From Clostridia bacterium (GTDB taxonomy: Bacteria > Bacillota > Clostridia > Monoglobales > Monoglobaceae): a stretch of DNA of 64,000 nucleotides. The stretch lies in the NCBI GenBank assembly GCA_045592585.1, contig JAZNVB010000026.1, positions 7,849 through 71,848 on the forward strand. Reading direction: 5' to 3'. Shown piece after piece: positions 6,240 through 54,763 of the stretch. The notes under the pieces are model-generated. The model was not told the DNA's origin. It saw only the letters and a list, made by a program, of their open reading frames with translations, and searched no databases. The position numbers and the translations under genes were made by a program. How positions within the stretch are numbered: the stretch's first letter is position 1; each line of letters opens with the position of its first letter.

Positions 6240-7568
<1,329 letters not shown>

Positions 7569-11021: not shown

Positions 11022-11900
11022 TTATTTTTCTTTAATTAAATCAAGAAATTTCTGTGCCGCGGGCGACAGGGTGTTGTGCTTTAAATATGCATAACCGATA
11101 TGTCTTGTGGGCAAACTTGGGTTAAGTGCAAGCTTTTGCACGTTGCCAAGCTGCAGACTCTCTTTTGAGAATTCTTCAACCACGCAGGAGATGCCCAGAT
11201 GGATGGAGGCAAACCTTAACAAAAGCTCGTGGGCGGCAACTTCAATCTGCGGCGTTAAGGATATGTGCTTTTTGCCAAATTCCTCGTCGAGAAAGCGTCG
11301 GGAGATTGAGTTCTTTTCAAGGAGTATCAGGGGTTCTTTTGCAATGTCCTCCCAACTGTATTTTTGCCTGAGTTTTTGCTCGGGACCTGCAACAAATATA
11401 TCGTGTATTTCAAGGCAAGGTTCGATTGTCAGCTCGTCATCCTGGGCAGGAAGGCTTACAAAGGCAAGCTCGGCTGTTCCGTCCTTCACAAGCTGCAGCA
11501 TATGATATGAATATGAGTTTGCCATTTCAATTCTTATGCCGGGGAAAAGCCTGTGGAACTTTTCAAGATAAGGCAAAAGATAATGGGCGGTTATGGTATC
11601 TGCAGCGGCAATAATCAGCGAGCCGCTGTCAAGGTGGTGCAGCCTTGCAAGAAGGGTTTCGCCTTGCTCTATTGATTGCACTGCACTTTCAACCTTCTGA
11701 AAAAGAAGCTGACCCTCCTTTGTAAGAGTCACCCCCCTGCGTGAACGGTTAAATAAAACGGTGCCCAGATCCTCTTCAAGCTGGTGTATACACTGGGATA
11801 TTGCCGACTGCGAAATAAACAGGTGCCGCGCCGCTGTGGAGAACGAGGCATATCTTGCGGTTTCGTAAAAAATTTTGTAATAATCGAGTTTTGTTTTCAT
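11022..11900 (-). CDS. LysR-family transcriptional regulator
   Basis: N-terminal wHTH FSTAARHLFISQSAISQCIHQLEEDLGTVLFNRSRRGVTLT plus a LysR substrate-binding domain. Confidence 0.9.
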   Translation of the reverse strand: MKTKLDYYKIFYETARYASFSTAARHLFISQSAISQCIHQLEEDLGTVLFNRSRRGVTLTKEGQLLFQKVESAVQSIEQGETLLARLHHLDSGSLIIAAADTITAHYLLPYLEKFHRLFPGIRIEMANSYSYHMLQLVKDGTAELAFVSLPAQDDELTIEPCLEIHDIFVAGPEQKLRQKYSWEDIAKEPLILLEKNSISRRFLDEEFGKKHISLTPQIEVAAHELLLRFASIHLGISCVVEEFSKESLQLGNVQKLALNPSLPTRHIGYAYLKHNTLSPAAQKFLDLIKEK

Positions 11901-11937
11901 ATAAGCTCTCCTTATTACTGTTGTAAGTATTATCTAC

Positions 11938-11966
11938 TTTACTTATATTTATATTTGTAGTATAAT
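11938..11966 (+). promoter_or_regulatory. Candidate sigma-A promoter (TTTACT-17-TATAAT), divergent from lysR, driving the long leader of the cofE-like gene
   Basis: TATAAT at 11961-11966 and TTTACT at 11938-11943. This would give a leader of about 385 nt containing cassette units A1 and A2. Confidence 0.45.
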
Positions 11967-11993
11967 GGCTATGATAACAAATGTCAATACATT

Positions 11994-12171
11994 GGAGGAA
12001 TTTAATGTGAATGTTTTTTCACATTATTGCCTCCGGCAGATTTGATTGCCCATGCGAAATTTTTTTCGCTTTCGCTCAAAAACGCATATGGGCGTAAAAA
12101 TCTCTTATCATTCCTTGCCATACGGATAAGAGAAATTTAATTATATTTGTGCCGACGTATGGCGGCGGAAT
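11994..12171 (+). ncRNA. Structured SD-to-SD cassette, unit A1 (first unit of a tandem dimer)
   Basis: - Opening SD: GGAGG 11994-11998.
- P1: AATGTGAA/TTCACATT.
- Anti-SD: CCTCC.
- P2: GCCC 12048-51, ATGCG 12052-56 ... CGCAT 12083-87, bulge AT, GGGC 12090-93.
- P3: TCTCTTATC/GATAAGAGA.
- Loop CCATACG pairs with tail CGTATGG.
- Ends at the next GGAG. Confidence 0.75.
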
Positions 12172-12358
12172 GGAGATTAACGTGAAAGTTCCTTTCCCGT
12201 TAAGCCTCCGGCAGATTTGATTGCCCATGCGAATTTTTTTTCGCTTTCGCTCAAAAACGCATATGGGCGTAAAAATCTCTTATCATTCCTTGCCATACGG
12301 ATAAGAGAAATTTAAAATTATATTTGTGCCGACGTATGGCGGCGGAATGGAGATTTTT
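12172..12358 (+). ncRNA. Structured SD-to-SD cassette, unit A2. Ends at the SD and ATG of the cofE-like gene.
   Basis: - P1: 12179-12201.
- CCTCC: 12205-09.
- P2: 12223-12268.
- P3: 12276-12308.
- Pseudoknot: CCATACG 12293-99 with CGTATGG 12333-39.
- SD helix: GGAATGGAGATTTTT 12344-58 is complementary to AAAAATCTC 12271-79 and CATTCC 12284-89. Confidence 0.75.
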
Positions 12359-13549
12359 ATGGAAAGAAGAGTAGGTACAGTTTCAAGAGGTATCCGTTGC
12401 CCAATTATCCGTAAGGGCGATGATATAGCTACAATCGTAGTAAACAGTGTTACAGAGGCGGCTCAGATTGAAGGGTTTGAACTTCGCGACCGTGATGTTG
12501 TTGCAGTTACAGAATCTATTGTTGCACGTGCACAGGGCAACTATGCATCTGTTGACGCTATCGCAAAGGATGTATGCACAAAGCTTGGCGGCGGCACAAT
12601 CGGTGTTATTTTTCCAATTCTCAGCCGCAATCGTTTTGCTATCTGTTTAAGAGGTATTGCAAAGGGTGCAAAAAAGATAGTTCTTATGCTCAACTATCCC
12701 AGCGACGAGGTTGGCAATGCGTTGGTATCACTTGACCAGCTTGACAATGCGGGCGTTAATCCTTATTCTGATGTTCTTACCGAAGCAAAATATCGCGAGC
12801 TTTTTGGCGAGAATCCACATCCCTTCACAGGTGTTGATTATATAAAATACTATGGTGATTTGATTAAGTCCTGCGGCGCAGAGGTTGAAATAATTTTGGC
12901 AAATGACCCCAGAGTTATCCTTAAGTACACAGATTGCGTTCTTAACTGTGACATTCACAGCCGTGTTCGCACAAAGAGAATTTTAAAGGATGCAGGCGCA
13001 AAATGCGTTGTTGGTCTTGACGAAATTCTGTCAGAGTCTGTTGACGGCAGCGGATTTAACTCAAGATATGGTTTGCTTGGCTCAAACAAGTCAACTGAAG
13101 ACACAGTTAAGCTCTTCCCCAACGAATGTTTTGATTTGGTTGAAAATATTCAGGCACAGCTTTTAGAGAAGACAGGTAAGCATATCGAGGTTATGGTTTA
13201 CGGCGATGGCGCCTTCAAAGACCCCCAGGGCAAAATCTGGGAGCTTGCTGACCCGATAGTTTCACCTGCATACACAAAAGGGCTTGAGGGTACACCTAAC
13301 GAGCTTAAGCTCAAATATCTTGCAGATAATGATTTTGCAGAACTCAAGGGCGAGGAACTGAAAAAGGCAATTGAGGGTGCAATCAAGCAAAAGGATGGCG
13401 ACCTTGTTGGCAATATGGCATCTCAGGGCACAACCCCAAGACGCCTTACCGACCTTATCGGTTCACTTTGTGACCTTACAAGCGGCTCGGGCGACAAGGG
13501 CACACCGGTTGTTCTTGTTCAGGGCTACTTTGATAATTTGACAGACTAA
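12359..13549 (+). CDS. CofE-like protein (F420-0:gamma-glutamyl ligase family, PF01996-like), function unknown here
   Basis: Starts MERRVGTVSRGIRCPIIRKGDD...VVAVTESIVARAQG, which looks like the CofE family. ATG 12359 lies 6 nt after GGAG. The track start at 12326 runs into the RNA cassette. Confidence 0.6.
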   Translation: MERRVGTVSRGIRCPIIRKGDDIATIVVNSVTEAAQIEGFELRDRDVVAVTESIVARAQGNYASVDAIAKDVCTKLGGGTIGVIFPILSRNRFAICLRGIAKGAKKIVLMLNYPSDEVGNALVSLDQLDNAGVNPYSDVLTEAKYRELFGENPHPFTGVDYIKYYGDLIKSCGAEVEIILANDPRVILKYTDCVLNCDIHSRVRTKRILKDAGAKCVVGLDEILSESVDGSGFNSRYGLLGSNKSTEDTVKLFPNECFDLVENIQAQLLEKTGKHIEVMVYGDGAFKDPQGKIWELADPIVSPAYTKGLEGTPNELKLKYLADNDFAELKGEELKKAIEGAIKQKDGDLVGNMASQGTTPRRLTDLIGSLCDLTSGSGDKGTPVVLVQGYFDNLTD

Positions 13550-23402: not shown

Positions 23403-24119
23403 ATGACAAAAGAAAAATCACAGAATTCATATCTGTATGGATTAAACAAGGGGCTTCCCATTGCACTTGGTTATCTTTCGGTATCCTTTGGGTTTGGTAT
23501 TACCGCAGTGGGAATGGGTATTAACCCCATCGGCACAATACTTATATCATTAACAAATCTGACCTCGGCAGGTCAGGTGGCAGGTATTGGTATTATTGCC
23601 GCCTGCGGAGCTATTATCGAAATGATTCTGGCGCAGCTTGTTATAAATATGCGGTACAGCCTTATGGGATTGGCTCTTACCCAAAAGCTGGATGGCAGTT
23701 TTACCACCCCTCACCGTATGATTACCTCCTTTGCAATAACCGACGAGGTCTTTGCGGTTGCGGCGGCAGAAAGGGGTCTTATTGGCAGAAGGTTTATGTA
23801 TGGTCTGATAACTCTGCCACCTGTTGGCTGGACAATGGGTACGACTTTGGGTGTGTATGCAGGGCAGATTTTGCCGCCATCGGTGTGCGCGGCGCTGGGA
23901 CTTGCCATTTACAGTATGTTTATTGCCATAATTATTCCACCTGCAAAGGCTGATAAGGGAGTTTTGTGTGCGGTGCTTATTGCCTCGGCAATGAGTTGTG
24001 CATTTTATTATATCCCGATATTTGACGGACTTTCGCAAGGCTTTTCAATTATAATATGCGCCGTTGTTGCATCGGGAATAATGGCATATATCGCACCAAA
24101 GTCAGGGGAGGAGGAGTAA
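23403..24119 (+). CDS. azlC: AzlC-family branched-chain amino acid permease component
   Basis: Typical AzlC N-terminus (GLPIALGYLSVSFGFGI) and size. Followed by azlD. Confidence 0.85.
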   Translation: MTKEKSQNSYLYGLNKGLPIALGYLSVSFGFGITAVGMGINPIGTILISLTNLTSAGQVAGIGIIAACGAIIEMILAQLVINMRYSLMGLALTQKLDGSFTTPHRMITSFAITDEVFAVAAAERGLIGRRFMYGLITLPPVGWTMGTTLGVYAGQILPPSVCAALGLAIYSMFIAIIIPPAKADKGVLCAVLIASAMSCAFYYIPIFDGLSQGFSIIICAVVASGIMAYIAPKSGEEE

Positions 24120-24278
24120 CGTGATAAACACGTTATCAATAATTAAATGCCCGTGCGATATTTTCGCCGGGGCGAAACGCACATGGGCAAATATCTATTA
24201 TACGCCTTATCTGCCCACGATATGGTGTAATATGTTTTCACGTTATGATTTGTGGGCTGAAAGGCTATGGATATTTAT
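24113..24278 (+). ncRNA. Structured SD-to-SD cassette, unit D (monomer between azlC and azlD)
   Basis: - Opening SD: GGAG 24113-16 overlaps the last azlC codons.
- P1: AACGTG 24118-23 with CACGTT 24129-34.
- P2: GCCC 24149-52, GTGCG ... CGCAC, bulge AT, GGGC 24185-88.
- P3: CCTTATC 24205-11 with GATATGG 24219-25.
- Pseudoknot: GCCCAC 24213-18 with GTGGGC 24252-57.
- SD helix: AAATATC 24189-95 with GATATTT 24270-76. Confidence 0.65.
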
Positions 24279-24584
24279 ATGAATAAAATGTTTTTTGCGT
24301 ATCTTGCCGCCATGGCGTTGGTGACATACTTTATCCGCATGATTCCCTTTACCCTGATGCGCAGCAAAATAAAATCACCTTTTATACAGAGTTTTTTGTT
24401 CTATGTGCCATATTCGGTACTTGGGGCGATGACCTTTCCCTACATTCTTTATGCCACGGGAAATATGCTTACTGCGGCGCTGGGTACTGCGGTGGCATTT
24501 GTTCTTGCATATTTTGGACGGTCACTTTTGACTGTTGCAATTTGTGCCTGTGCTGTTGCATTTGCGGCAGGCTTGATTTTTTAA
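24279..24584 (+). CDS. azlD: AzlD-family branched-chain amino acid transport protein
   Basis: Small 4-TM protein following azlC. Start ATG 24279 chosen by analogy with the other cassette-to-ATG spacings. The track start is 24267. Confidence 0.8.
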   Translation: MNKMFFAYLAAMALVTYFIRMIPFTLMRSKIKSPFIQSFLFYVPYSVLGAMTFPYILYATGNMLTAALGTAVAFVLAYFGRSLLTVAICACAVAFAAGLIF

Positions 24585-24653
24585 TAAAATAAAATAAAAG
24601 AATAGACCAAACAGCAGAAAGATAAAATATTGATAGAAAAAGGAGTGACAAAT

Positions 24654-25937
24654 TTGAGAACAGAGAAAATTGAAATTTCAAAGGGTGTATCCTTGCGTTT
24701 TCTTGAAACCGATAAATTCAAGACAAATGTGATGAGTATATGTTTCAGGCTTCCCCTTGAAAGAAAAACAGTTACAAAGATAGCTCTTTTGCCAAGAGTT
24801 TTAAAGCGAGGCAGCGAAAAATATCCCACGATGAGTGACCTTTCAAGAAGGGCTCAGGAGCTTTACGGTGCATCGCTTTCGGCAGATAACGGCAAACGTG
24901 GCGACCTTATGCTCCTTCGGGTATCGGTGCAGTTTGTCAGCGACAGCTTTATTTCGGAAAGTATTATCGGCGACGTTTGCGAACTGCTTAAGGAGTTTGT
25001 TCTTTGCCCGGTGACAAAAGACGGAGCTTTTGACAAGGTATATGTTCAGCAGGAAAAGGAGAATACCAAAAACTATATTTTGGGGCTTATAAATGATAAA
25101 AAGGAATATGCGGCTGTTCGCTGTAATGAAATTATGTTCGAGGGTGACCCCTACGGAATAATTTCTCACGGATATATAGAGGACCTTGAAGAAATTGACG
25201 AAAAGAATCTTTACGAGTTCTATAAGGAAATGATTAAAACCGCAGCGGTTGACGTTTATGTCAGCGGAAGCTTTGACAAGACTGCGGTGAAAGGTGAGAT
25301 TGAAAAGAACTTTAAAGAGGCGTTTTGCGACCGTGATACATTAGTTTGCGAAACTAAACTTGCTAAGGTTGAAGAAAATATTGAGGTTAAGAATGTTGTT
25401 GAAGAAATGCCTGTTTCGCAAAGCAAGCTGGCAATGGGCTTTAACTGCGGCATTGACCCAAGGTCGGATGAGAGCTATGCCCTTGCCCTTTGTTCGTGCC
25501 TTTATGGCGGAAGTGCAATTTCAAAGCTTTTTAACAATGTCCGTGAAAAGCTCAGCCTTGCCTATTATGTATTTTCGGCGGTTGACCGTCACAAGGGTTG
25601 TATGAAGGTGAATGCAGGGATTGAAGCATCAAAGTATGACGAGGCGTTCAATGAAATAATGCTTCAGCTTGATATGATGAAAAAAGGCGAGTTCACTGAC
25701 GAAGAAATTGATTTTGCCAAAAAGACATTCAAGAATTCAGCAGGCAGCATAAAAGACAGTTTGGTTGCAACCGAGGACTTTTATATGAGCCGTGCTTTGC
25801 TTGGCGTTGAAGAATCTGTTGACGAGTACCTTGAAAAAATTAACAAGGTAACACGTGAGGAGATAGTTGCTGCAGCAAATAAAATACAGCTTGATACAAT
25901 TTACTTTTTGAAGGGGGTACAGGGCAATGAAATTTGA
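24654..25937 (+). CDS. M16-family (insulinase-like) protein lacking the zinc motif, YfmF-like
   Basis: Peptidase_M16 fold pattern with no HxxEH. Paired with the catalytic partner downstream. TTG 24654 follows AGGAG plus 8 nt. Confidence 0.7.
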   Translation: MRTEKIEISKGVSLRFLETDKFKTNVMSICFRLPLERKTVTKIALLPRVLKRGSEKYPTMSDLSRRAQELYGASLSADNGKRGDLMLLRVSVQFVSDSFISESIIGDVCELLKEFVLCPVTKDGAFDKVYVQQEKENTKNYILGLINDKKEYAAVRCNEIMFEGDPYGIISHGYIEDLEEIDEKNLYEFYKEMIKTAAVDVYVSGSFDKTAVKGEIEKNFKEAFCDRDTLVCETKLAKVEENIEVKNVVEEMPVSQSKLAMGFNCGIDPRSDESYALALCSCLYGGSAISKLFNNVREKLSLAYYVFSAVDRHKGCMKVNAGIEASKYDEAFNEIMLQLDMMKKGEFTDEEIDFAKKTFKNSAGSIKDSLVATEDFYMSRALLGVEESVDEYLEKINKVTREEIVAAANKIQLDTIYFLKGVQGNEI

Positions 25938-27222
25938 ATTGACAGAAAATAAGGCTCTTAAGGAAAGTATCCTTTCAGGCGTTCACGAAAGCGGGCTGCG
26001 GGTGTATATTATCCCCAAACAAGGTTTCAGCAAGTATTATGCCATTTACGGCACCGAATACGGCTCAATTGATGATGTATTAAAGCTTCCTGAGGGCGAA
26101 ATCAAGCTCCCTGACGGAATTGCACATTTTCTTGAACACAAGCTTTTTGAAGAGGAAGACGGCAAGGATGCCTTTGAAAAGTTTGCGGCAACGGGCGGCA
26201 ACAGTAACGCGTTTACGAGCTTTGATATGACGGCATATCTGTTTTCCTGCACCGAGAATTTTTACGAAAATCTTGACATTCTTCTGGAATTTGTCAACAA
26301 CCCCTATTTCACCGATGAAAATGTGGCCAAAGAGCAGGGAATTATCGGTCAGGAAATCAAGATGTATGACGACGACCCCAACTGGCGGCTGTTCTTCAAT
26401 ATGCTTCAGGGTATGTATCACAACAACCCTGTAAAGACCGATATTGCAGGCACGGTTGAAAGCATCAGCAATATAAATCCTGAACTTCTGTACAAGTGCA
26501 CAAAGGCATATTACAACCCGTCAAATATGATTTTGGTTATGGTGGGCGATATCGACCCTGAAAAGGCGGTATCTTATATTGATAAATATGTAAGTCCCGA
26601 AAAAGATATGGGCAAGATTGAAAAACGGAAAGTTGACGAGCCTGATACAGTAGTTAATAAAATTGTTCGCCAGAAGTTAAGTGTTTCAAAGCCTCAGTTC
26701 CTTATTGGATTTAAGGAGAAGGAAGAAGGGGTTAAAGGCAGAGAACTGCAGCTTAAACAGATAAAAACCCAGATTTTAATGGAAGTTCTGTTTGGCAAAA
26801 GCAGTGAATTTTTCACCGAACTTTACGGCGAGGGCATTATTGATGCAACATTCGGATATGATACCGAGCTTGAGGTTGGCTACGGCTTTTCGTCAATAAG
26901 CGGCGAAAGCTCAAAACCCGAAGAAGTTTATGAAAAAACTCTTGAATATGTGGCAAAAATGGCGGCAAAGCCTCTCGATAAAGGAGCGGTTGATGTTGCA
27001 AAGCGAGTGCTTATCGGCAAGAATTTAAGACGGTTTAACAGCGTTGAACGTCTGGGTAATGACTTTATCCGTTGCTTTATGAGTGGCATTAACCCCCTTG
27101 AATACAGCGACCTTGTTCAGCAGGTTACCATTGAGCAGATTGAAGAAAGGTTAAAGGAGCACTTCGACACAGAATCTTGTGTACTTTCTATAATTGAACC
27201 TTTGGACGGTGAAGACAAATGA
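25927..27222 (+). CDS. M16-family zinc peptidase, YfmH-like
   Basis: Inverted zinc motif HFLEH (GIAHFLEHKLFE) and M16 N- and C-domains. Confidence 0.8.
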   Translation: MKFELTENKALKESILSGVHESGLRVYIIPKQGFSKYYAIYGTEYGSIDDVLKLPEGEIKLPDGIAHFLEHKLFEEEDGKDAFEKFAATGGNSNAFTSFDMTAYLFSCTENFYENLDILLEFVNNPYFTDENVAKEQGIIGQEIKMYDDDPNWRLFFNMLQGMYHNNPVKTDIAGTVESISNINPELLYKCTKAYYNPSNMILVMVGDIDPEKAVSYIDKYVSPEKDMGKIEKRKVDEPDTVVNKIVRQKLSVSKPQFLIGFKEKEEGVKGRELQLKQIKTQILMEVLFGKSSEFFTELYGEGIIDATFGYDTELEVGYGFSSISGESSKPEEVYEKTLEYVAKMAAKPLDKGAVDVAKRVLIGKNLRRFNSVERLGNDFIRCFMSGINPLEYSDLVQQVTIEQIEERLKEHFDTESCVLSIIEPLDGEDK

Positions 27223-28022
27223 TAAATACTATATCTTTTCCTAACCTTGGCTGGGAGTTTACGATAAGCCGCACAGCCTTTGAAATTTTCGGAACGCCCG
27301 TATATTTTTACGGGCTTCTGATTGGCATGGGTTTGTTACTTGCGGTTGTATATGGCTTGTATGAAACAAAGCGGGTTGGTATAGACCACGACGATATGTT
27401 TAATATGCTGCTTATTGCTCTGCCTGTTTCAATTATTTGTGCCCGACTTTATTATGTAATTTTTCAGTGGGATTACTACAAGAATAATCTGTTGGAGATT
27501 TTAAACATTCGTGGCGGCGGAATTGCCATATACGGCGCGGTAATTGGTGCGGCAATAGTGGTTTTTACATATTGTATTATAAAAAAACTCAGTATTGCCA
27601 AGTGTCTTGATGTTTTGTCCATTGGTTTGCTTATTGGTCAGGCAATTGGCAGATGGGGCAATTTTGTCAACGGCGAGGCATTCGGCTCGCAAACCAACCT
27701 TCCCTGGGCTATGACAATTGTTCAGGATGGTTTATTGATTGCACAAAAGGTTCACCCAACATTTTTATATGAGTCTTTGTGGAACGTTTTGGGTATTGTT
27801 TTGCTGTGGCTTTACCGCAAGCACAAGAAGTTTGAAGGCGAACTGATTTGCGGATATATGATATGGTACGGCTTGGGAAGAATGATGATTGAGGGACTTC
27901 GGACCGATTCGTTAATGCTTGGTAATTTCCGTGTTTCACAGCTTCTTTCGGTAATTCTGGTTATTGCGGGAATTGTAATTGTAATTTTAAAAAGAAAATC
28001 TGCAAAAACACTTGACAAATAG
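27219..28022 (+). CDS. lgt: Prolipoprotein diacylglyceryl transferase
   Basis: GRWGNFVNGEAFG signature and a polytopic profile. Confidence 0.9.
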   Translation: MINTISFPNLGWEFTISRTAFEIFGTPVYFYGLLIGMGLLLAVVYGLYETKRVGIDHDDMFNMLLIALPVSIICARLYYVIFQWDYYKNNLLEILNIRGGGIAIYGAVIGAAIVVFTYCIIKKLSIAKCLDVLSIGLLIGQAIGRWGNFVNGEAFGSQTNLPWAMTIVQDGLLIAQKVHPTFLYESLWNVLGIVLLWLYRKHKKFEGELICGYMIWYGLGRMMIEGLRTDSLMLGNFRVSQLLSVILVIAGIVIVILKRKSAKTLDK

Positions 28023-28040
28023 AAATTTTTGAGTTACAAT
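28012..28040 (+). promoter_or_regulatory. Sigma-A promoter (TTGACA-17-TACAAT) for ylxM-ffh
   Basis: Hexamers at 28012-28017 and 28035-28040, overlapping the lgt 3' end. Confidence 0.55.
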
Positions 28041-28094
28041 AGCTGAGGTGTAAAGTTAGATTGCTTTACAGCAAGGGATAAAGGAGTGGAAATT

Positions 28095-28466
28095 ATGGAA
28101 AAAAACGTTGAAATTTCTCTTCTTTTGAGTTTTTACAAAAATATGCTTACAAATAGGCAGGCAGACACCGTTGAACTATATTACAACGAGGATTTGTCGC
28201 TTTCAGAGGTGGGTGCCGAGCTTGGGATAAGCCGTCAGGGTGTTCGTGACAACCTGAAACGTGCCGAGGCGATTCTTTATGATGTTGAGTCAAAGCTGGG
28301 GCTGGCTGCAAGGTTTATTGAAATTAAATCAAAGCTTGGCGAGATTGATGATATTATTGCCGAGATTGAAAAGTCACCCGAGGCAAGGCTGCTTCCTGTA
28401 AGCATAAAAAAACAGATAAACCAGATTCTTACAATTGTTGCAGGAATTAACGATTTAGAGGAATAG
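28095..28466 (+). CDS. ylxM: YlxM (UPF0122) putative DNA-binding protein
   Basis: Sigma-70 region-4-like HTH (LSLSEVGAELGISRQGVRDNLKRA). Conserved position upstream of ffh. Confidence 0.85.
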   Translation: MEKNVEISLLLSFYKNMLTNRQADTVELYYNEDLSLSEVGAELGISRQGVRDNLKRAEAILYDVESKLGLAARFIEIKSKLGEIDDIIAEIEKSPEARLLPVSIKKQINQILTIVAGINDLEE

Positions 28467-28497
28467 TGATACATATTTTGATGAAGGAGTGAGGCGT

Positions 28498-29859
28498 ATG
28501 GCATTTGAAAGTCTTGCAGATAAACTGCAAAACGCATTCAAAAAACTGCGTGGCAAGGGCAAAGTTTCGGCAGCCGATTTAAAAGAAGCCATGCGTGAGG
28601 TTAAACTGGCACTCCTTGAGGCCGATGTCAATTTCAAAGTTGTTAAAAACTTTATAAACACCGTAACTGAACGTGCATCAGGTGCCGAGGTTATGGAATC
28701 TCTTACCCCCGCACAGCAGGTTATAAAAATTGTTAACGAAGAGCTTGTTGCTCTTATGGGTACAGAAGAACAGAAAATTAAAATTTCTTCCAGGCCCCCC
28801 ACGGTTATTATGATGACAGGTTTGCAGGGTGCAGGTAAAACAACCACCGCCGCAAAGCTTGGCGGACTTTTGAAGAAACAGGGCAAACGCCCCTTGCTTT
28901 GTGCCTGCGACGTTTACCGTCCTGCGGCAGTTAAGCAGCTTCAGGTTGTGGGCTCTCAGCTTGACCTTCCGGTGTTTGCAATTGAAGGCAACACCAATCC
29001 TGTTGAAATTGCCGAAAAAGCTCTGCAGCATGCAAAGCTTCATTCCAATGATATTCTTATTGTGGATACAGCAGGACGTCTTCACATTGACGAAGAGCTG
29101 ATGAATGAACTTAAAAACATCAAGGCAAAGATAGACCCCACAGAAATTCTTCTTGTGGTTGACGCAATGACAGGTCAGGATGCGGTGAATGTTGCCGAGG
29201 CCTTTAATAATGATTTGGAAATTGACGGTGTTGTCCTTACCAAGCTGGACGGCGACACCCGTGGCGGTGCGGCACTTTCTGTTCGCGCGGTTACAAACAA
29301 GCCTATCAAGTTCTGCGGTATGGGCGAAAAGCTTACCGACCTTGAGGTGTTCCATCCTCAAAGAATGGCGTCAAGAATTTTGGGCATGGGCGATATGCTC
29401 AGTCTTATTGAAAAGGCTGAACAGGCTCTTGACGAAAAAAAGGCTCTTGAACTTGAGCAGAAGATGCGCAGCAACACATTTACATTTGCTGATTTCCTTG
29501 ACCAGATGGAACAAATGAAAAAAATGGGACCTCTGGAACAACTTATCGGGATGATTCCCGGTATGAATACAGCACAACTTAAGGATGTGCAGATTGACGA
29601 GAAAAAGATGCTTCATACCGAGGCGATAATCAAGTCAATGACAATCGGCGAAAGGGAAAATCGTGACAAGCTCACACCAAAACGCCGTGAGAGAATTGCA
29701 AAAGGCAGCGGTACCACCGTTGCTGATGTGAATGCGCTTGTCAAGCAGTTTGAACAGATGCAAAAAATGATGAAGATGATGTCCGGCGGCGGATTTGGAA
29801 AGAAAATGAAGCATTTGGGTAAAATGGGCAAGATGGGAAAAATGAAGTTTCCCTTCTGA
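28498..29859 (+). CDS. ffh: Signal recognition particle protein Ffh
   Basis: MAFESLADKLQ..., GLQGAGKTTT, DTAGRL, TKLDGD, and a Met-rich C-terminus. Confidence 0.97.
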   Translation: MAFESLADKLQNAFKKLRGKGKVSAADLKEAMREVKLALLEADVNFKVVKNFINTVTERASGAEVMESLTPAQQVIKIVNEELVALMGTEEQKIKISSRPPTVIMMTGLQGAGKTTTAAKLGGLLKKQGKRPLLCACDVYRPAAVKQLQVVGSQLDLPVFAIEGNTNPVEIAEKALQHAKLHSNDILIVDTAGRLHIDEELMNELKNIKAKIDPTEILLVVDAMTGQDAVNVAEAFNNDLEIDGVVLTKLDGDTRGGAALSVRAVTNKPIKFCGMGEKLTDLEVFHPQRMASRILGMGDMLSLIEKAEQALDEKKALELEQKMRSNTFTFADFLDQMEQMKKMGPLEQLIGMIPGMNTAQLKDVQIDEKKMLHTEAIIKSMTIGERENRDKLTPKRRERIAKGSGTTVADVNALVKQFEQMQKMMKMMSGGGFGKKMKHLGKMGKMGKMKFPF

Positions 29860-29911
29860 TTTAACTAAAGAAAATTATTAAATTATATATATTTTTTGGA
29901 GGTAATTTATT

Positions 29912-30154
29912 ATGGCAGTAAAAATTCGTTTAAGAAGAATGGGTTCTAAGAAGGCTCCTTTCTACAGAGTGGTAGTAGCAGATTCAAGATACCCCAGAGA
30001 CGGCAGATTTATCGAACAGGTTGGAACATACAATCCTATGACAAAGCCTGCAGCAGTTGATTTTGATGCTGAAAAGGTTGCAAAGTGGATTGGTAATGGT
30101 GCTCAGCCCACAGATACAGTTAAGCGTCTTCTTAAAGAAAAGGGCATTATCTAA
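29912..30154 (+). CDS. rpsP: 30S ribosomal protein S16
   Basis: [26 protein letters not shown]. Confidence 0.97.
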
Positions 30155-30238
30155 TTTTAAATGATATTGAGGTCGGCTCGTACCCTTTAACAGTAAGGGT
30201 ATGGGCAGGCTATTGACCCGGATTTTGGAGGAAAAGAA

Positions 30239-30466
30239 ATGAAAGAGCTTTTGGAATTTATTGCAAAATCAATGGTTTCAGAGCCTGATGCAGTTTCGAT
30301 TGAAGAAAATGTTCAGGAAAACTCGGTTGTTTTGACCTTGCACGTTGCCGAAGGCGATATGGGTAAGGTTATCGGCAAGCAGGGAAGAATAGCAAAGGCT
30401 ATCCGCACTGTTGTTAAGGCGGCTGCAAGCCACGAAAACAAAAAAGTTACGGTTGATATTGTGTAA
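30239..30466 (+). CDS. KH-domain RNA-binding protein (YlqC family)
   Basis: GKVIGKQGRIAKAIRTV motif. Position between rpsP and rimM. Confidence 0.9.
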   Translation: MKELLEFIAKSMVSEPDAVSIEENVQENSVVLTLHVAEGDMGKVIGKQGRIAKAIRTVVKAAASHENKKVTVDIV

Positions 30467-30481
30467 CATTAAAGGTAAGAT

Positions 30482-30520
30482 AGACTGTATCGCAACCGGT
30501 ACAGTCTTTACTTGCTTTTA
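30482..30520 (+). terminator. Weak terminator/attenuator hairpin after the KH gene
   Basis: AGACTGTA-10 nt-TACAGTCT followed by TTTACTTGCTTTTA. Confidence 0.4.
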
Positions 30521-30536
30521 TAGATAGGTTTTAATT

Positions 30537-30714
30537 GAGGAATTTAACGTGAAAGTTCCTTTCACGTTAAGCCTCCGGCGGATTTGATTGCCCGTGTGAG
30601 ATTTTCCTCGCGTTTGCTCGGAAACACACATGGGCGTAAAAATCTCTTATCATTCCTTGCCATGCGGATAAGAGATATTTAATTCCTATTTGTGCCGACG
30701 TATGGCGGCGGAAT
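30537..30714 (+). ncRNA. Structured SD-to-SD cassette, unit B1
   Basis: - Opening SD: GAGGA 30537-41.
- P1: perfect 10 bp, AACGTGAAAG 30546-55 with CTTTCACGTT 30559-68.
- Anti-SD: CCTCC.
- P2: GCCC 30590-93, GTGTG ... CACAC, bulge AT, GGGC 30632-35.
- P3: 30643-30675.
- Loop CCATGCG pairs with tail CGTATGG (one G-U pair). Confidence 0.75.
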
Positions 30715-30902
30715 GGAGATTAACGTGAAAGTTCCTTTCCCGTTAAGCCTCCGGCGGATTTGATTGCCCGTGTGAGATTTTCCTCGCGTTTGCTCGGAAA
30801 CACACATAGGCGTAAAAATCTCTTATCATTCCTTGCCATACGGATAAGAGATATTTAAGTCCTATTTGTGCCGACGTATGGCGGCGGAATGGAGATTTTT
30901 AT
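30715..30902 (+). ncRNA. Structured SD-to-SD cassette, unit B2. Ends at the rimM SD and ATG.
   Basis: Same architecture as A2, and near-identical to it outside P2. A G-to-A change at 30808 weakens P2a (AGGC instead of GGGC). GGAG 30891-94 lies 8 nt before ATG 30903. Confidence 0.75.
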
Positions 30903-31400
30903 ATGAAAAATAATCTTGAAATTGGACAAATAGTGAATACCCACGGTCTTCGGGGCGACCTTAAGGTTATGCCATGGTGCGACGATCCCGAAATTTTTGA
31001 CGAGCTGGCGTATGTTATTATAGATGGCGAAGAATATGATATCGAAAAATCCCGGATGCAAAAGAATATGGTTCTTCTGAAACTTGCAGGGATAGACCAT
31101 ATCAATGAAGCCGAGAAATACCGCAACAAGGTGCTTACCATTCCCCGTGAGGAATTGGGTGAACTTCCTGAGGGCACCTATTACATCTGCGACCTTCTGG
31201 GTTGCGGTGTAACAACAGATCAGGGCAGAGAATTGGGCAAAATTTGTGATATAATCAAGACGGGCAGCAATGATGTTTATGTGGTTGAGGATGATGCCGG
31301 CAATCAGGTGCTAATCCCTGTAATTGATGAAGTTGTTTTGTCTGTTGACATTGATGAAAAGAAAATTGTTATTAAGCCCTTAAAAGGATTGATTGACTGA
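30903..31400 (+). CDS. rimM: Ribosome maturation factor RimM
   Basis: IGQIVNTHGLRGDLKV and a PRC-barrel C-terminus. Position before trmD. Confidence 0.92.
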   Translation: MKNNLEIGQIVNTHGLRGDLKVMPWCDDPEIFDELAYVIIDGEEYDIEKSRMQKNMVLLKLAGIDHINEAEKYRNKVLTIPREELGELPEGTYYICDLLGCGVTTDQGRELGKICDIIKTGSNDVYVVEDDAGNQVLIPVIDEVVLSVDIDEKKIVIKPLKGLID

Positions 31401-32143
31401 TGGCTGAATTGCGAGTTGATATTTTAACACTGTTTCCAGAAATGTTTGATGCAGTTTTAAATAATTCCATAATCGGCAGAGCTGTGGAAAACGGTATCTT
31501 GGAGATAAACTGTGTGCAAATAAGGGATTTTGCCTTTAACAAGCACAGGCAGGTTGATGATTACCCCTACGGCGGCGGTCAGGGAATGGTTATGCAGGCA
31601 GAACCCATTTACCTTGCATATATGAGCGTTTGTGAAGGGCTTGACCATAAACCTTTGACTATTTATATGTCGCCTCAGGGCAAAACCTTCAGACAGTCAA
31701 CTGCAAAAAAACTGGCAAAGAAAAAGCATATGGTGATTCTTTGCGGTCATTACGAGGGCGTTGACCAGAGAATACTTGACGAAATAGTAGACGTCGAAAT
31801 TTCAATGGGCGATTTTGTGCTTACCGGCGGCGAGATTGCTGCTATGGCGGTGGTTGATGCAACTGCAAGAATGATTCCCGGGGTGCTTGCCTGCGAGGAA
31901 GCCTTTGCGGATGAATCGCATTTTTCGGGGCTGCTTGAATATCCACAGTATACCCGCCCGGCAGAGTGGCACGGCAAGACGGTGCCTGAGGTGCTGATGA
32001 ATGGCAATCACAAGCTGATACAGGATTGGAAACGCAGAGCCGCTATTGAAAATACTTACCGCAAACGTCGGGGAATGCTGTCAAAGGCAAACCTTGACAA
32101 GAAGGATATGAAAATATTGCAACAAATTAAAGAACAACAGTGA
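31400..32143 (+). CDS. trmD: tRNA (guanine37-N1)-methyltransferase
   Basis: ILTLFPEMF, DDYPYGGGQGMVM, GHYEGVDQR. Confidence 0.95.
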   Translation: MAELRVDILTLFPEMFDAVLNNSIIGRAVENGILEINCVQIRDFAFNKHRQVDDYPYGGGQGMVMQAEPIYLAYMSVCEGLDHKPLTIYMSPQGKTFRQSTAKKLAKKKHMVILCGHYEGVDQRILDEIVDVEISMGDFVLTGGEIAAMAVVDATARMIPGVLACEEAFADESHFSGLLEYPQYTRPAEWHGKTVPEVLMNGNHKLIQDWKRRAAIENTYRKRRGMLSKANLDKKDMKILQQIKEQQ

Positions 32144-32239
32144 GTATTTTGCTGAAAATTTTAATAATTTGTTGTTTTTTGATAAATATTATGTTATAAT
32201 AAATTGTTAAGATTGATTTGGACAGACAAGGAGCTTTAT

Positions 32240-33208
32240 ATGGACATTTTTTTTCTTACACTTAAGCAGATGGTGATGATGTTTCTATTTATTCTTGCGG
32301 GATTTGTCCTCAGAAAAAAGATGATATTGGCTGACAATGCAGGGACTATAATGGCAAGGCTGGAAACTTATATTTTCACTCCGGCTCTTTCACTTTTCAC
32401 CATGATTACAAAGTGCAATGTCAGGACTTTTGCAGAAAATTACACACTGATATTGTGGGGATTTGTAATTGTAATTGCAGCAATTGCACTTGCATATCCA
32501 TTATCTGCAATGTTTGTAAGAAAATCTCACCAAACCCCGGAGAAGATGTACCGGAGAAATATATATAAATATGCAATGACCTTTGGCAATTATGGATTTA
32601 TGGGAAATTTCCTCATTCTTGGAGTATGGGGAAATGAAATGTTTTATAAGTATTCTATGTTTGTTTTCCTTGTTGGAATTTTATGCAGCAGTTGGGGCTT
32701 ATACATACTTATCCCTAAAGACCATAATGCAGGTCTTGCGGCAAATCTGAAAAAAGGTCTTTTAACACCGCCTATACTGGCTCTTGTTTGCGGTATGGCA
32801 ATTGGTCTTGCGGGGCTGAGTAAATATATTCCGGATTTTGTAATAACAGCCTTTGATAATGCAGGAAAGTGCCAGGGCCCTGTTGCAATGTTGCTTGCCG
32901 GCTTTGTAATCGGCGGCTATGACCTGAAAAAGCTCTTATTTAATAAAAAGGTATATGCGGCATCGCTTTTGAGGCTTATAATTATACCCGCAGTTATGAT
33001 GCTGGTGCTGAAAGTTCTTGGCACAAGTGATGAAATTATGACTCTTGCGTTGATTTGTTTTGCGACACCTCTTGGTCTTAACACCATAGTTTATCCCGCA
33101 GCATACGGAGGGGAAACACAAACCGGTGCATCTATGACAATGATTTCGACCACCCTTTCGTTAATTACATTGCCGTTGATGTATCTGGTATTTATTGTAT
33201 GGTTATAA
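32240..33208 (+). CDS. AEC (auxin efflux carrier) family transporter
   Basis: About 10 TM segments with an AEC-like pattern. ATG 32240 follows AAGGAG. Confidence 0.7.
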   Translation: MDIFFLTLKQMVMMFLFILAGFVLRKKMILADNAGTIMARLETYIFTPALSLFTMITKCNVRTFAENYTLILWGFVIVIAAIALAYPLSAMFVRKSHQTPEKMYRRNIYKYAMTFGNYGFMGNFLILGVWGNEMFYKYSMFVFLVGILCSSWGLYILIPKDHNAGLAANLKKGLLTPPILALVCGMAIGLAGLSKYIPDFVITAFDNAGKCQGPVAMLLAGFVIGGYDLKKLLFNKKVYAASLLRLIIIPAVMMLVLKVLGTSDEIMTLALICFATPLGLNTIVYPAAYGGETQTGASMTMISTTLSLITLPLMYLVFIVWL

Positions 33209-33353
33209 AAAAGTGTTTTGATTAAAGCACATCAACTCCCCTGCCCCTCACTCTTGAGGGGATTAAGGTACACTTTATTTGTAATATAGGAAATTACGGA
33301 AATCGGAACGATTTAGTCGTTTTATATATTAAAGAAAAACGGAGGAAAATTTG

Positions 33354-35423: not shown

Positions 35424-35506
35424 GCAACCGAAGAATGCTGTGTTAAAAATATCAGTCTTAAGGCTTAAGGGAGAAAATCTCCTTATAGCATAAGGGAGGA
35501 AACACC

Positions 35507-36115: not shown

Positions 36116-36120
36116 GATTT

Positions 36121-36699: not shown

Positions 36700-36700
36700 A

Positions 36701-37933: not shown

Positions 37934-37939
37934 AGGATA

Positions 37940-38120
37940 GGAGATATAACGTGAAAAATCACGTTAATCACTATATTTAAATTGCACCGTCGAAATTTTC
38001 GCACAAAGTGCGAAACGACGATGTGCGTAATCTCCATTTCACGTCTTATCTCGCCCACGGATAAGAGACAGGGGATTTAAAATATAATCATTTGTGGGCG
38101 GAAAGACTATGGAGATTAAT
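37940..38120 (+). ncRNA. Structured SD-to-SD cassette, unit C (monomer upstream of rsfS)
   Basis: - Opening SD: GGAGAT 37940-45.
- P1: AACGTGA 37948-54 with TCACGTT 37959-65.
- P2: GCAC 37984-87, CGTCG 37988-92, TTTCGCAC/GTGCGAAA, CGACG 38016-20, bulge AT, GTGC 38023-26.
- P3: TCTTATC 38044-50 with GATAAGA 38060-66.
- Pseudoknot: CGCCCAC 38052-58 with GTGGGCG 38094-100.
- SD helix: TAATCTCCAT 38028-37 with ATGGAGATTA 38109-18. Confidence 0.75.
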
Positions 38121-53886: not shown

Positions 53887-53965
53887 GTTGTTTTGGAGTA
53901 AAATAAAGTTGAATTATTTACATTTTTTTTCTTTTATGATAATATTGAAAAATGGAGGAGATTTT

Positions 53966-54763
53966 ATGCTTATAGATATTCACACACACGTATTCCCTGA
54001 AAAAATTGCCCAAAGGGCGATTGAAACTTTGAGTCATACATCAGGTGGACTTATACCGCAGCATAAGGGGACTCTTGCAAGCCTTAAAGAAGAAATGGCA
54101 AAAGACGGAGTAGACATTTCGGTGGTTTTGGGGATTGCCACAAACCCTCATCAGCAGACAAATGTTAATAACTTTGCGGCCGAGATAAACAAGGACGAAA
54201 AAATTGTTGCCTTCGGGTCGGTGCATCCCGATGCCCCCGATGCGCTGGATGAGCTTGAACGTATTAAGGCTCTGGGACTTAAAGGTGTTAAACTTCACCC
54301 TGAGTATCAGAATTTTTTTGTTGATGACGAGAGGATGAAGCCTATATACGAAAAAATCTCACGACTTGGACTTGTAACACTTTTCCATGCAGGGCATGAT
54401 TACGGCTACGGCGAGCCATTTCACTGTATGCCGCAAAATTTAGAACGTGCGCTAAAATGGTTTTCGGCACCTGTTATTGCGGCTCATTGGGGCGGCGCAG
54501 GTTGCAAGGATTTAGTAATAAAACACTTAGCAGGCAAGGATGTGTGGTTTGATTTGTCCTTTGGATATGGTAATATGCCAAAGAGCTTTGCTCAGGAAAT
54601 TGTGGACAAGCACACCCCCGACAGACTGCTGTTTGGCTCGGATATGCCCTGGCACAGACCATCATGGGAGGTAAGGCTGATTGAGTCCTTAGACCTTTCG
54701 TCACAGGATAAGGAAAAGATATATTACAAAAATGCAGTCCGGCTTTTGGGTTTGGATATATAA
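53966..54763 (+). CDS. Amidohydrolase-family (TIM-barrel metal hydrolase) protein
   Basis: MLIDIHTHVFP start, HPEYQ, AHWGG. ATG 53966 follows GGAGG. Confidence 0.7.
   Translation: MLIDIHTHVFPEKIAQRAIETLSHTSGGLIPQHKGTLASLKEEMAKDGVDISVVLGIATNPHQQTNVNNFAAEINKDEKIVAFGSVHPDAPDALDELERIKALGLKGVKLHPEYQNFFVDDERMKPIYEKISRLGLVTLFHAGHDYGYGEPFHCMPQNLERALKWFSAPVIAAHWGGAGCKDLVIKHLAGKDVWFDLSFGYGNMPKSFAQEIVDKHTPDRLLFGSDMPWHRPSWEVRLIESLDLSSQDKEKIYYKNAVRLLGLDI

Follow-up and report, generated by a model that had tools for sequence, protein, structure and literature searches.

The window, the whole 64-kb stretch of DNA that was analysed, carries six related structured units on the plus strand (A1, A2, B1, B2, C and D). 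Each unit or array lies between the SD of a host gene and its start codon, and each unit brings an SD of its own at its 3' end (GGAGATT or GGATATT). The units, their parts, the flanking features and two sites that stand empty in the window are as follows.

11938..11966, plus strand, candidate sigma-A promoter TTTACT-17-TATAAT (consensus scan, 10/12 matches).
11994..12003, plus strand, host half of the ribosome-binding site (RBS) upstream of the A array: SD GGAGGA and spacer ATTT, whose last base is the near-invariant T(-1) (from sequence).
12004..12178, plus strand, unit A1, long type (sequence and HMM search): P1 12003-12026, with the compensated change AATGTG/CACATT; P1b 12029-12037; P2 12048-12093; anti-SD strand 12095-12104; P3 12102-12109 / 12125-12132; pseudoknot strands 12110-12124 / 12156-12171; SD GGAGATT 12172-12178.
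12179..12355, plus strand, unit A2, long type, followed by TTT and the ATG at 12359: P1 12178-12202 (CCCGTT variant, one U.C mismatch); P1b 12204-12212; P2 12223-12268; anti-SD strand TAAAAATCTC 12270-12279; P3 12277-12284 / 12300-12307; pseudoknot strands 12285-12299 / 12333-12348; replacement SD GGAGATT 12349-12355.
12356..12361, plus strand, spacer TTT and ATG of the F420_ligase (cofE-like) gene, PF01996.
24118..24275, plus strand, unit C, short type, SD variant GGAT, between the azlC-like and azlD-like genes, followed by TAT and the ATG at 24279: P1 24117-24135; P2 24149-24188; anti-SD 24189-24198; P3 24203-24211 / 24219-24227; pseudoknot 24212-24218 / 24252-24265; SD region 24267-24275.
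30537-30545, plus strand, host SD half GAGGAATTT upstream of B1.
30546..30721, plus strand, unit B1, long type, first of two between a KH-domain gene and rimM.
30722..30897, plus strand, unit B2, long type, replacement SD 30891-30897, followed by TTTAT and the rimM ATG at 30903.
31396..31402, plus strand, empty target at the overlap of the rimM stop and the trmD start (gacTGATGgct).
37948..38117, plus strand, unit D, short type, SD GGAG, before rsfS, followed by AAT and the ATG at 38121: P1 37947-37966; P2 37984-38026; anti-SD TAATCTCCAT 38028-38037; P3 38043-38050 / 38059-38069; pseudoknot 38051-38058 / 38094-38107; SD region 38109-38117.
53951..53968, plus strand, empty target, the RBS GGAGGAGATTTTATG of the gene starting at 53966.

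The candidate promoter, which an earlier sequence-only reading had proposed and the consensus scan recovered, would drive a transcript in which the A1-A2 array forms the 5' leader of the F420-ligase-like gene. That reading had also described a tandem dimer before this gene, with units of 178-187 nt; two units are indeed present, but the tandem period of the A and B arrays is 175-176 nt and not 178-187. Both of the units it labelled C and D exist, with the letters swapped relative to coordinate order. The TTT spacer and the A of the cofE-like ATG pair with the TAAA of the A2 anti-SD strand, and the stop TAA (24117-24119) of the ORF upstream of C is created by the junction T/AA. The motifs are far more frequent in the window than expected: AACGTG-N(3-20)-CACGTT was matched three times against 0.01 expected, RAAACRNNNATRKGC six times against 0.4, and CTTATC..GATAAG six times against 0.04, five of these lying inside units and the sixth (63971-64000) being unrelated. 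MFE z-scores range from -4.6 to -8.0. No further copies were found in the window by nhmmer with the family HMMs, and database look-ups of the azlD-like protein and of the protein of the gene at 53966 returned nothing on record.

Homologues were collected by one pattern scan. Because the pattern demanded that the 5' half of P1, the 3' half of P2 and the SD all be intact, decayed copies are under-represented. The scan gave at least 116 stretches, with at least 121 genuine copies in at least 66 species-level gut assemblies of Clostridia, belonging to Oscillospiraceae, Monoglobales and other Clostridia from human, chicken, ruminant and mouse gut. A long type of about 176 nt and a short type of about 160 nt occur within one genome. 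The element begins with AACGTG and ends with GGA(G/T)ATT, and arrays consist of one to three units with the tandem junction GGAGATT/AACGTG. Two variants are reduced: L038 has the 3' domain alone, directly behind a TATAAT promoter, and L082 is without P1. In L077 a truncated unit is followed by a 44-aa ORF to which no significance was attached, and contig L118 ends inside a unit. Plasmid and phage records gave no match to the element, and one IMG/VR contig carries a copy. In the sequences examined nhmmer recovers all copies; the long and short types cannot both be captured by one nested structure.

The sequence-only reading had recognised no known family and had named an Rfam match beforehand as one finding that would count against it. 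Rfam 15 gave no match at gathering threshold over all 64 kb and none at E <= 1 over 24000-38200, and a permissive search of 11900-12420 returned snoRNA-type noise only (E 1.5-8). Neither a description nor a printed sequence of the element was found in the literature searched, a Minerva preprint proving to be unrelated, and the family is apparently undescribed.

The helices were checked in 119 homologues (among the matches listed). MAFFT misaligns the long against the short types, so that RNAalifold, given a mixed alignment, recovered nothing but P2; the two types were therefore analysed separately. The 5' part of the fold comprises the P1 hairpin, an optional P1b and an irregular P2 hairpin; the internal loop first drawn in P2 is better described as a 3-nt AAA bulge and a 2-nt AU bulge. 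In the 3' domain, the loop of the P3 hairpin pairs with the 3' tail. Directly 3' of P2 lies the anti-SD strand, which forms a helix with the new SD, the spacer and the A of AUG. This SD helix had been noticed before and extends further than first thought, through the 3 nt past the element. P1, P2a/b/c, P3, the pairing of the P3 loop with the 3' tail and the SD helix can all be read in the sequence, as can the compensated P1 change in A1. In the short type 96.4% of cells are paired, compared with 35-42% in slid controls, with 13 compensated pairs; in the long type the values are 95.7%, 39-53% and 18. None of 500 shuffles reached the observed value for either type. The SD helix itself covaries in the short type (AU 14 / CG 8, that is GGAU/AUCC versus GGAG/CUCC), and the outer helix does so in the long type (UA 49 / AU 41). 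The six co-oriented units belong to a real family with a selected multi-helix fold whose helices hold across the homologues, and the frequent compensatory changes, the SD-occluding helix and the pseudoknot-type pairing that had been claimed for them are supported.

Constraint on the fold was also examined within genomes. Between loci of one genome, paired columns diverge by 5.5% and unpaired columns by 18.8%, so that stems change about 3.4 times more slowly. This sits awkwardly with a rare-variant test in which private stem variants were mostly disruptive and about as frequent as those in unpaired positions; hypervariable loops bias that test, and pairwise divergence was therefore used instead. 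Outside P3, minority variants contain G.U and A.C mismatches in about equal numbers; in P3 G.U is in excess (18 versus 6), and three G.U pairs are invariant. The asymmetry between G.U and A.C was tried as a means of assigning the strand and was indecisive overall.

The new SD is predicted to be strongly occluded, with an unpaired probability of 0.034 compared with 0.41 for control genes (p = 2e-39), and in the long type the anti-SD CUCU could find an alternative partner in the AGAG of P3. These properties can be read as those of a portable translational operator. Its SD helix would be opened or locked by a trans-acting factor, either a protein or an sRNA that binds the highly conserved P2 or the pseudoknot; dozens of unrelated genes would come under common post-transcriptional control, as has been proposed for Neisseria REP2/CREN, and mobility would be only how the regulon grew. 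The slow divergence of the stems between resident copies and the occluded SD are consistent with such an operator, as are the almost invariant bulged nucleotides of P2, although the search pattern imposed part of the P2 invariance. The L038 and L082 variants suggest the 3' domain as the leader itself, and REP2 provides a precedent (PMC3184786). The mostly disruptive private stem variants argue against it, the downstream genes have no functional theme and no candidate factor has emerged so far. Overall this explanation is regarded as doubtful.

The position of the element relative to the host gene is strict. The insertion lies in the few-nucleotide spacer between SD and start codon and has one orientation. 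Among the matches listed, the ATG follows exactly 3 nt after the element (+4..+6) in 102 of 121 copies; about 110 of the 121 have a nearby downstream ATG, and all of these are in the sense orientation relative to that gene. To the left lie the host SD, two to five nucleotides and a near-invariant T: in the left-flank logo, again among the matches listed, T occupies -1 in 118 of 119 copies and positions -8..-4 are G-rich. Neither flank was constrained by the search pattern. The new SD in the GGA(G/T)ATT end sits 6 nt before the host ATG, so the repeat immediately upstream of the ORF supplies its RBS, as REP2/CREN-like repeats do. The host ATG pre-exists the insertion, because empty orthologous sites carry it. 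Two further features proved not to belong to the family: a coding mini-ORF from the GTG of AACGTG varies from 2 to 65 codons without a conserved frame, and an internal outward promoter (TTGCCA-17-TAAAAT) occurs in A2 only.

The genes behind the element are diverse. The 101 downstream proteins (among the matches listed) fall into 152 Pfam families with three members at most per family, and the preceded genes include the essential rimM, trmD and murI. Multiple copies, tandem arrays and unrelated downstream genes had been remarked upon at the first reading and have become central features of the element. They bear on the possibility of a metabolite- or ion-sensing riboswitch duplicated before many genes. 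A multi-helix pseudoknotted fold with an expression platform that sequesters the SD would suit one, but such a diversity of Pfam families, a copy number that varies, sites present or absent between close relatives and the lack of any Rfam match do not, and the upstream units of an array would control just the GTG mini-ORF, whose length is not conserved. A ligand-specific riboswitch, to which the fold had first been likened, is extremely improbable.

Comparison of orthologous sites shows that the units come and go. The rimM site holds two units in the window and a single unit in each of L029, L033 and L089; it is empty in L117, a contig encoding a 100% identical RimM, and in L125-141, and relatives with the empty site include some at 92%, 83% and 78% identity. 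The trmD site is reciprocal, with one short-type unit in the sister lineage L125-127 and none in the window. The XIEF21 cohort contains both occupied and empty versions of the rimM and trmD sites. Similarly, the L044 orthologue of the gene at 53966 (94% amino acid identity) has two units at the position that is empty in the window. Unit copy number varies, and the presence of the element at a site differs between close relatives. Such differences between very close strains, one with an identical RimM, speak against the portable operator, whereas retention of insertions at orthologous sites across species speaks for it: the unit before rsfS is kept in all five other contigs that encode an identical RsfS, and an insertion is shared by L075 and L098. 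Copies are 86.5% identical within a genome and 79.4% between genomes, and about 86% within a genome is low for a recently active transposon. As with bcr1, a strain-variable distribution is combined with an RNA structure kept by compensatory changes. The units before the cofE-like gene are probably a mobile cassette whose insertion is targeted to the spacer between SD and start codon, and not a leader that arose together with the gene.

The ends and flanks were examined for traces of the insertion mechanism. Terminal inverted repeats are absent, the 5' end TAACGTGAAAG being unrelated to the reverse complement of the 3' end (AATCTCCATTCC), and the repeat search of the window gave no inverted pair. 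No consistent target-site duplication was seen across the copies' flanks, and 5-bp direct repeats flanking the copies were not found. A 2-nt duplication was considered and found no support in the flanks, the left (-2) and right (+1) positions being uncorrelated (p = 0.38). Three empty/filled pairs differ by a further 1-2 nucleotides, which in two of the pairs fall within T runs and cannot be assigned; a unit plus 2 nt fits these pairs best, tandem junctions are without those 2 nt, and the ends are placed to within 1-2 nt. The right-flank triplet was considered as a copy-specific match between guide and target and rejected: it varies together with the element subfamily, and assigning its first 2 nt to the element gives a better fit to the empty sites. 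Nor is there any correspondence between the left flank and the anti-SD variant.

Several of these observations would also suit an element acting at the DNA level, whose hairpins are single-stranded DNA structures for an HUH enzyme (IS200/IS605- or RAYT-like) or a hairpin-acting tyrosine recombinase and whose RNA fold and SD occlusion are by-products. Hairpins lie at or near both ends, terminal inverted repeats and a clear target-site duplication are both lacking, the empty sites look seamless, and the near-equality of G.U and A.C mismatches outside P3 gives no clear RNA-strand signature. The left flank, however, holds only a purine-rich stretch followed by W T and no conserved 4-5-nt target ahead of the element, and 116 eight-kb loci share no recurrent transposase, recombinase or reverse transcriptase, TnpA, TnpB and RAYT-like ORFs included. 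Orientation follows the gene in every scored copy, while the element strand has positive GC skew in just 73% of loci, about the usual gene bias, and strongly negative skew in 13. Occurrence on both strands relative to transcription had been put forward as a sign of a DNA repeat, and all scored homologues are sense to the downstream gene. Both the G.U excess in P3 and the three invariant pairs of this kind fit a sense RNA strand. At its 3' end the element has what looks like a functional SD, canonically spaced, a feature that matters at the RNA level alone. A purely DNA-level element is considered distinctly unlikely.

Another conceivable route is through RNA, with self-cleaving or self-ligating units whose arrays give rise to unit-length or circular RNAs (compare retrozymes and satellite RNAs) that are copied back at RBS sites. 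Head-to-tail arrays with their precise period, a compact pseudoknotted core with highly conserved unpaired nucleotides, and the sense orientation of every scored copy within a transcription unit would be in keeping with this. Against these stand the Rfam ribozyme models (hammerhead, twister, pistol, hatchet and hairpin), which were unmatched even at E <= 10, a sequence in which no hammerhead core is visible, and the 116 loci, at which no reverse transcriptase recurs; moreover, an element that cleaves itself from the mRNA would need no SD of its own. This route is very unlikely.

Taken together, the units are probably non-autonomous mobile cassettes that replace the RBS of a gene and gate its translation. 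The element would be co-transcribed with the host gene, and its RNA would exchange the translation-initiation region of that gene for a sequestered RBS, so that translation may need transient or factor-assisted opening of the SD helix. Insertion before essential genes would be tolerable thanks to the SD that the element brings. The lack of a recurrent mobilising enzyme at the 116 loci, of terminal inverted repeats and of a consistent duplication counts against this reading. Occlusion as strong as the folding model predicts would, moreover, be hard to square with translation of the essential rimM, trmD and murI. The element may persist mainly as a selfish passenger, its fold presumably required for it to propagate, to keep expression tolerable, or both. 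A more ambitious version, speculative and quite unlikely, is a self-contained mobile translational operator with nucleic-acid-guided homing: the internal anti-RBS strand (C-R-UAAWAAUCUCC) would recognise RBS-like DNA or transcript at integration and later gate the RBS, P2 would recruit a dedicated factor, and dozens of unrelated genes per genome would be joined in one post-transcriptional circuit in many gut Clostridia.

Small structured intergenic repeats are already known, and it is the combination for which no description was found: homing to the interval between SD and ATG, an old SD left in place, a new and sequestered SD, essential genes among the targets, and at least 66 species-level genomes. 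If the fold gates translation, the cassette is a mobile module that rewrites translation-initiation regions genome-wide, which would affect gene-expression models, the annotation of start sites and operons in MAGs, assembly, and efforts to find new RNA-protein or RNA-guided integration systems. A purely selfish cassette would be a clean example of a mobile element made harmless by a replacement RBS, and an RBS-homing operator, if true, would represent a new class of target-site selection and a new kind of regulon-building element.

Among known systems, classical DDE-type MITEs require the terminal inverted repeats that the element lacks. Palindrome-associated elements derived from IS200/IS605 and REP/REPIN sequences resemble it in being small, non-autonomous and structured, with seamless empty sites and no inverted terminal repeats, but the element lacks a conserved target of four or five nucleotides, follows the replication strand no more than genes do and is placed strictly relative to start codons, and no TnpA or RAYT was found at 116 loci. 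Translational riboswitches and RNA thermometers likewise have an upstream strand that pairs with the SD and start region, for which the long type has an alternative partner; in contrast to these, the element is multi-copy and strain-polymorphic, with neither a coherent gene set nor a known aptamer. The bcr1 repeats (Group A bcr) of the Bacillus cereus group are about 155 nt long, strain-variable and transcribed, with a structure kept by compensatory changes (PMC3184786), and thus share with the element their approximate size, a Gram-positive lineage, the variable distribution and the compensated RNA structure. They are flanked by 5-bp direct repeats, whereas the element has no consistent duplication, and a tie to start codons or an SD of their own is not described in that review (PMC3184786). 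In Neisseria meningitidis, stem-looped REP2 repeats lie upstream of many unrelated ORFs, supply the RBS and become the 5' UTR (PMC3184786). REP2/CREN, to which the IR sequences of Borrelia plasmids are similar, and the element are alike as interspersed repeats without terminal inverted repeats, with internal stem-loops and an RBS supplied to unrelated ORFs. REP2 carries a promoter and ATG, while the element has no conserved promoter and the ATG is apparently that of the host; insertion into the SD-ATG spacer leaving the host SD, tandem arrays and a covariation-supported pseudoknotted domain that sequesters the SD are not described for REP2 in the same review (PMC3184786). There is no sequence similarity between the two and the phyla differ; the likeness is one of analogy and not of membership. 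Neisseria REP2/CREN and Bacillus bcr1 are the closest concepts known.

Six units of a structured cassette were located in the window by reading the sequence and, for the long type, also by repeat finding:

12004-12178, plus strand: unit A1, long type (sequence reading and repeat finding)
12179-12355, plus strand: unit A2, long type (sequence reading and repeat finding)
24118-24275, plus strand: unit C, shorter relative (sequence reading)
30546-30721, plus strand: unit B1, long type (sequence reading and repeat finding)
30722-30897, plus strand: unit B2, long type (sequence reading and repeat finding)
37948-38117, plus strand: unit D, shorter relative (sequence reading)

The sequence-only reading had proposed six co-stranded units, with 178-187 nt for each of the tandem units at the cofE-like gene; the number and strand hold, and the size is corrected by repeat finding, in which the four long-type units form two tandem pairs (A1-A2 and B1-B2) with a period of 175-176 nt. 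All the helices that it described are legible in the sequence, among them hairpin P1 of A1 with its compensated AATGTG/CACATT; the anatomy that it gave the cassette is correct, and this is a genuine, large family. Pattern scans of the window gave 3 matches to AACGTG..CACGTT (0.01 expected), 6 to the 3' half of hairpin P2 (0.4 expected) and 6 to CTTATC..GATAAG (0.04 expected), five of the latter inside units and the sixth, at 63971-64000, unrelated to them. Single-sequence folds were far stabler than shuffled controls (z = -4.6 to -8.0), and a family HMM search found no seventh copy in the window. Of the 96 long-type copies, 29 have a mid-stem U.C mismatch in P1 (CCCGTT for CACGTT), a common subfamily trait that is also seen in A2 (12192-12202) and B2 (30735-30745), both counted here. 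Repeat finding also returned a 44-nt direct repeat pair (6980-7023 and 37669-37712, 70% identity), both within long ORFs; it appears to reflect chance or a resemblance between paralogous coding sequences and to have nothing to do with the cassette.

No known RNA family was matched in Rfam 15, in agreement with the sequence-only reading, which had recognised none: there were zero matches over the whole window at gathering thresholds, only noise over the A array at E <= 10, and zero matches over 24000-38200 at E <= 1. Nothing similar was found among plasmid and phage records, and full-text searches of the literature yielded no description of the cassette and no paper printing its sequence; the family is apparently undescribed. 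A scan with one exact pattern against one genome per species returned at least 116 stretches and, with three chance matches dropped, at least 121 copies in at least 66 species-level assemblies. Among the matches listed, every carrier is an uncultured member of the Clostridia, labelled as Oscillospiraceae (Congzhengia and Ructibacterium among them), Monoglobaceae, Candidatus Roslinia or the like, and comes from the gut of a human, chicken, mouse or ruminant. A single genome can hold both long and short types, as the window shows. Among 2.9 million viral contigs, a single one holds a copy: the IMG/VR contig L124 (6895-7074, minus strand) has a genuine short-type unit with an additional P1b hairpin, 3 nt before an ATG, and may be a prophage or mis-binned fragment. 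Metagenome contig L118 (1-112), which encodes an identical F420-ligase-like protein, terminates within unit A2, possibly where the repeat breaks short-read assembly; if repeats do so, cassettes would be under-counted in MAGs.

The compensatory changes first noticed in several helices were recovered in both types. For the short type, 23 sequences were compared with controls in which pairing partners were slid by 1-3 columns and with 500 shuffles; 96.4% of cells held standard pairs against 35-42% in the slid controls, and 13 pairs had changed on both sides, values reached by 0/500 shuffles. The long type (96 sequences, aligned with MAFFT without reference to a structure) gave 95.7% against 39-53%, with 18 compensated pairs and again 0/500 shuffles. 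The pseudoknot between the P3 loop and 3' tail reads CG 50, AU 37, UA 3 and GC 2 at one pair and GC 57 and AU 34 at the second; a P2b pair reads UA 79, CG 13 and GC 1, and a P2 tip pair CG 46, UA 35, GC 3 and AU 2. The helix between the anti-SD strand, which lies 3' of P2, and the SD region covaries too, GGAU with AUCC and GGAG with CUCC (AU 14, CG 8), and in the long type continues across the triplet behind the cassette as far as the A of AUG (TAAAAATCTC/GAGATTTTTA, TAATAATCTC/GAGATTATTA, TTTTAATCTC/GAGATTAAAA and TACTAATCTC/GAGATTAGTA). Within each type, hairpin P3 varies by wobble alone (G.U 18 against A.C 6); between types it shows a U-A to C-G change. Its outer three pairs compete with the SD for one CUC in the long type, so that two states are possible, and the short type leaves room for P3 and the SD helix to form together. 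Between loci of one genome, divergence was 5.5% in paired and 18.8% in unpaired columns after pattern-forced columns were removed. Pairing and compensation mark the fold as selected, and the difference in divergence argues that it is under constraint in resident copies; a crude rare-variant count, judged to be biased by hypervariable loops, gave no sign of fold constraint.

The search pattern was unconstrained outside AACGTG...GGA(G/T)ATT, and the composition of both flanks is therefore informative. Among the matches listed, an ATG lies exactly 3 nt past the cassette in 102 of 121 copies (2-8 nt in most others), and a T, which pairs with the A closing P1, directly precedes AACGTG in 118 of 119. 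From -8 to -4 the sequence is rich in purines and in G, in a register that varies between copies, like an ordinary host SD. Together this gives the general layout host SD, N2-5, T / AACGTG ... GGAGATT / NNN ATG, in which the terminal GGAG has canonical 6-nt spacing to the host start codon. Among the matches listed, a same-strand upstream ORF ends within 30 nt in 38 copies (intercistronic) and at 30-200 nt in 35, and 26 lie in a leader position without such an ORF; in six cases the upstream stop is made by the junction T/AA or by the TGA of AACGTGA. The azlC-like ORF (23403-24119) stops at such a TAA (24117-24119, host T plus cassette AA). Because the cassette-free L078 orthologue keeps an azlC-like/azlD ATGA stop/start overlap, the insertion altered the azlC-like C-terminus and broke translational coupling. 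The retained host SD is spaced from the GTG of AACGTG as from a start codon; this GTG opens a mini-ORF of 2-65 codons in varying frames, a variability that rules it out as a conserved coding feature.

Orthologous sites were found both filled and empty. The rimM site, aattGAGGAATTT, two units, then TTTATATGaaaaat in the window, reads aattGAGGAATTTTATATGaaaaat in a contig with 100% identical RimM and is also empty in relatives with RimM 92%, 83% and 78% identical; the more distant L029, L033 and L089 have one unit each at the homologous position, so that this RBS has either received insertions twice independently or undergone precise loss repeatedly. At the trmD site the 92% lineage (L125, 1198-1376) carries a short-type unit, gattgacT/AACGTAAAA...GGAAATT/AATATGgct, and the window (31396-31402) and L128 have the overlapping gattgacTGATGgct without a unit. 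The rimM/trmD stop-start overlap (TGATG) is thus unbroken in the window and split in the L125 lineage, a reciprocal presence and absence within one operon. No unit precedes the window gene that starts at 53966, whose RBS reads GGAGGAGATTTTATG (53951-53968), and its 94% identical L044 orthologue has two units at exactly this point; this unoccupied target closely resembles the cassette's own 3' end, GGAGATTTTTATG. Unit D is kept in 5/5 contigs with identical RsfS, and copies among the matches listed are 86.5% identical within a genome against 79.4% between genomes. A decayed array in L077 (3650-4020, minus strand), upstream of a gene assigned by eye as glutamate-racemase-like, has truncated units, one cut within P2 and followed by a 44-aa ORF, and shows that arrays rearrange and erode.

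The exact ends are uncertain to within 1-2 nt. Three empty/filled pairs are best fitted by AACGTG..GGAGATT + 2 nt, which would explain why the first right-flank bases follow subfamily (tails of the ATGGCGGC type go with TTT and those of the AGGGCGGC type with ATT, and the short type has AAT). Array junctions (GGAGATT/AACGTG or GGAGATAT/AACGTG) lack the extra 2 nt, and no 2-nt target duplication was consistent across flanks.

The suggested occlusion of the SD was upheld in a pseudoknot-free equilibrium folding model that took in 200 nt of upstream sequence. The predicted unpaired probability of the SD was 0.034 on average (median 0.003, n=98) for cassette-preceded genes against a mean of 0.41 for 251 ordinary SD-bearing genes of the same sequences, and fell below 0.1 in 90% against 13% (p = 2e-39). 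On these predictions the cassette would therefore put a strongly sequestered RBS in place of an open, average one. The SD helix must nevertheless open, because the products of rimM, trmD, murI and rsfS must still be made. Candidate routes are, for the long type, trapping of P3 during transcription, and more generally breathing of the A/U-rich outer part of the helix, a helicase or RNA-binding factor, or processing. A live alternative, though a less likely one than the mobile cassette, is that a trans factor acts on the fold to run a host regulon. A ligand-specific riboswitch, which the sequence-only reading had entertained, is unlikely, as the downstream products are unrelated (152 Pfam families in 101 proteins, at most three members each, among the matches listed).

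Shorter variants were also seen. In L038 (3440-3526, minus strand) the P3/pseudoknot/SD domain occurs without P1 or P2, starting a few bases past a TATAAT box and ending GGAGATTATTATG plus the gene, and an L082 variant lacks P1, which suggests that the SD-sequestering 3' domain serves as a leader in its own right. Unit A2 contains a promoter-like TTGCCA-17-TAAAAT (10/12; 12290-12318), from which a transcript would lack the anti-SD strand and leave the SD free; the site is weaker in A1 and absent in B1 and B2, and no internal promoter is conserved in the family.

Every scored copy is sense to its downstream gene, in agreement with the co-orientation first described in the window. Since GC skew is positive on the cassette strand in only 73% of loci (13 are strongly negative), orientation tracks the gene and not the replication fork, which argues against an IS200/IS605-like lagging-strand mechanism. 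Orientation is no proof of RNA function, as the target is itself asymmetric, and the fold might be a DNA-level transposition structure only, a live alternative that we regard as improbable. Terminal inverted repeats, a conserved short target in the flanks and a neighbouring transposase at cassette loci were all looked for and not found. A ribozyme or retro-element is very improbable. The cassette is probably a non-autonomous mobile element that is targeted to the spacer between SD and start codon, brings in a replacement SD and locks this SD into a conserved pseudoknotted domain. Its interest lies in its placement at the RBS, its wide occurrence in gut Clostridia, and the mechanisms of mobilisation and SD opening. 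Two known systems offer analogies, not homologues: the Neisseria REP2/CREN repeats, from which numerous unrelated genes likewise take their RBS, and the mobile repeat bcr1 of Bacillus, which likewise has a compensated RNA structure (PMC3184786).
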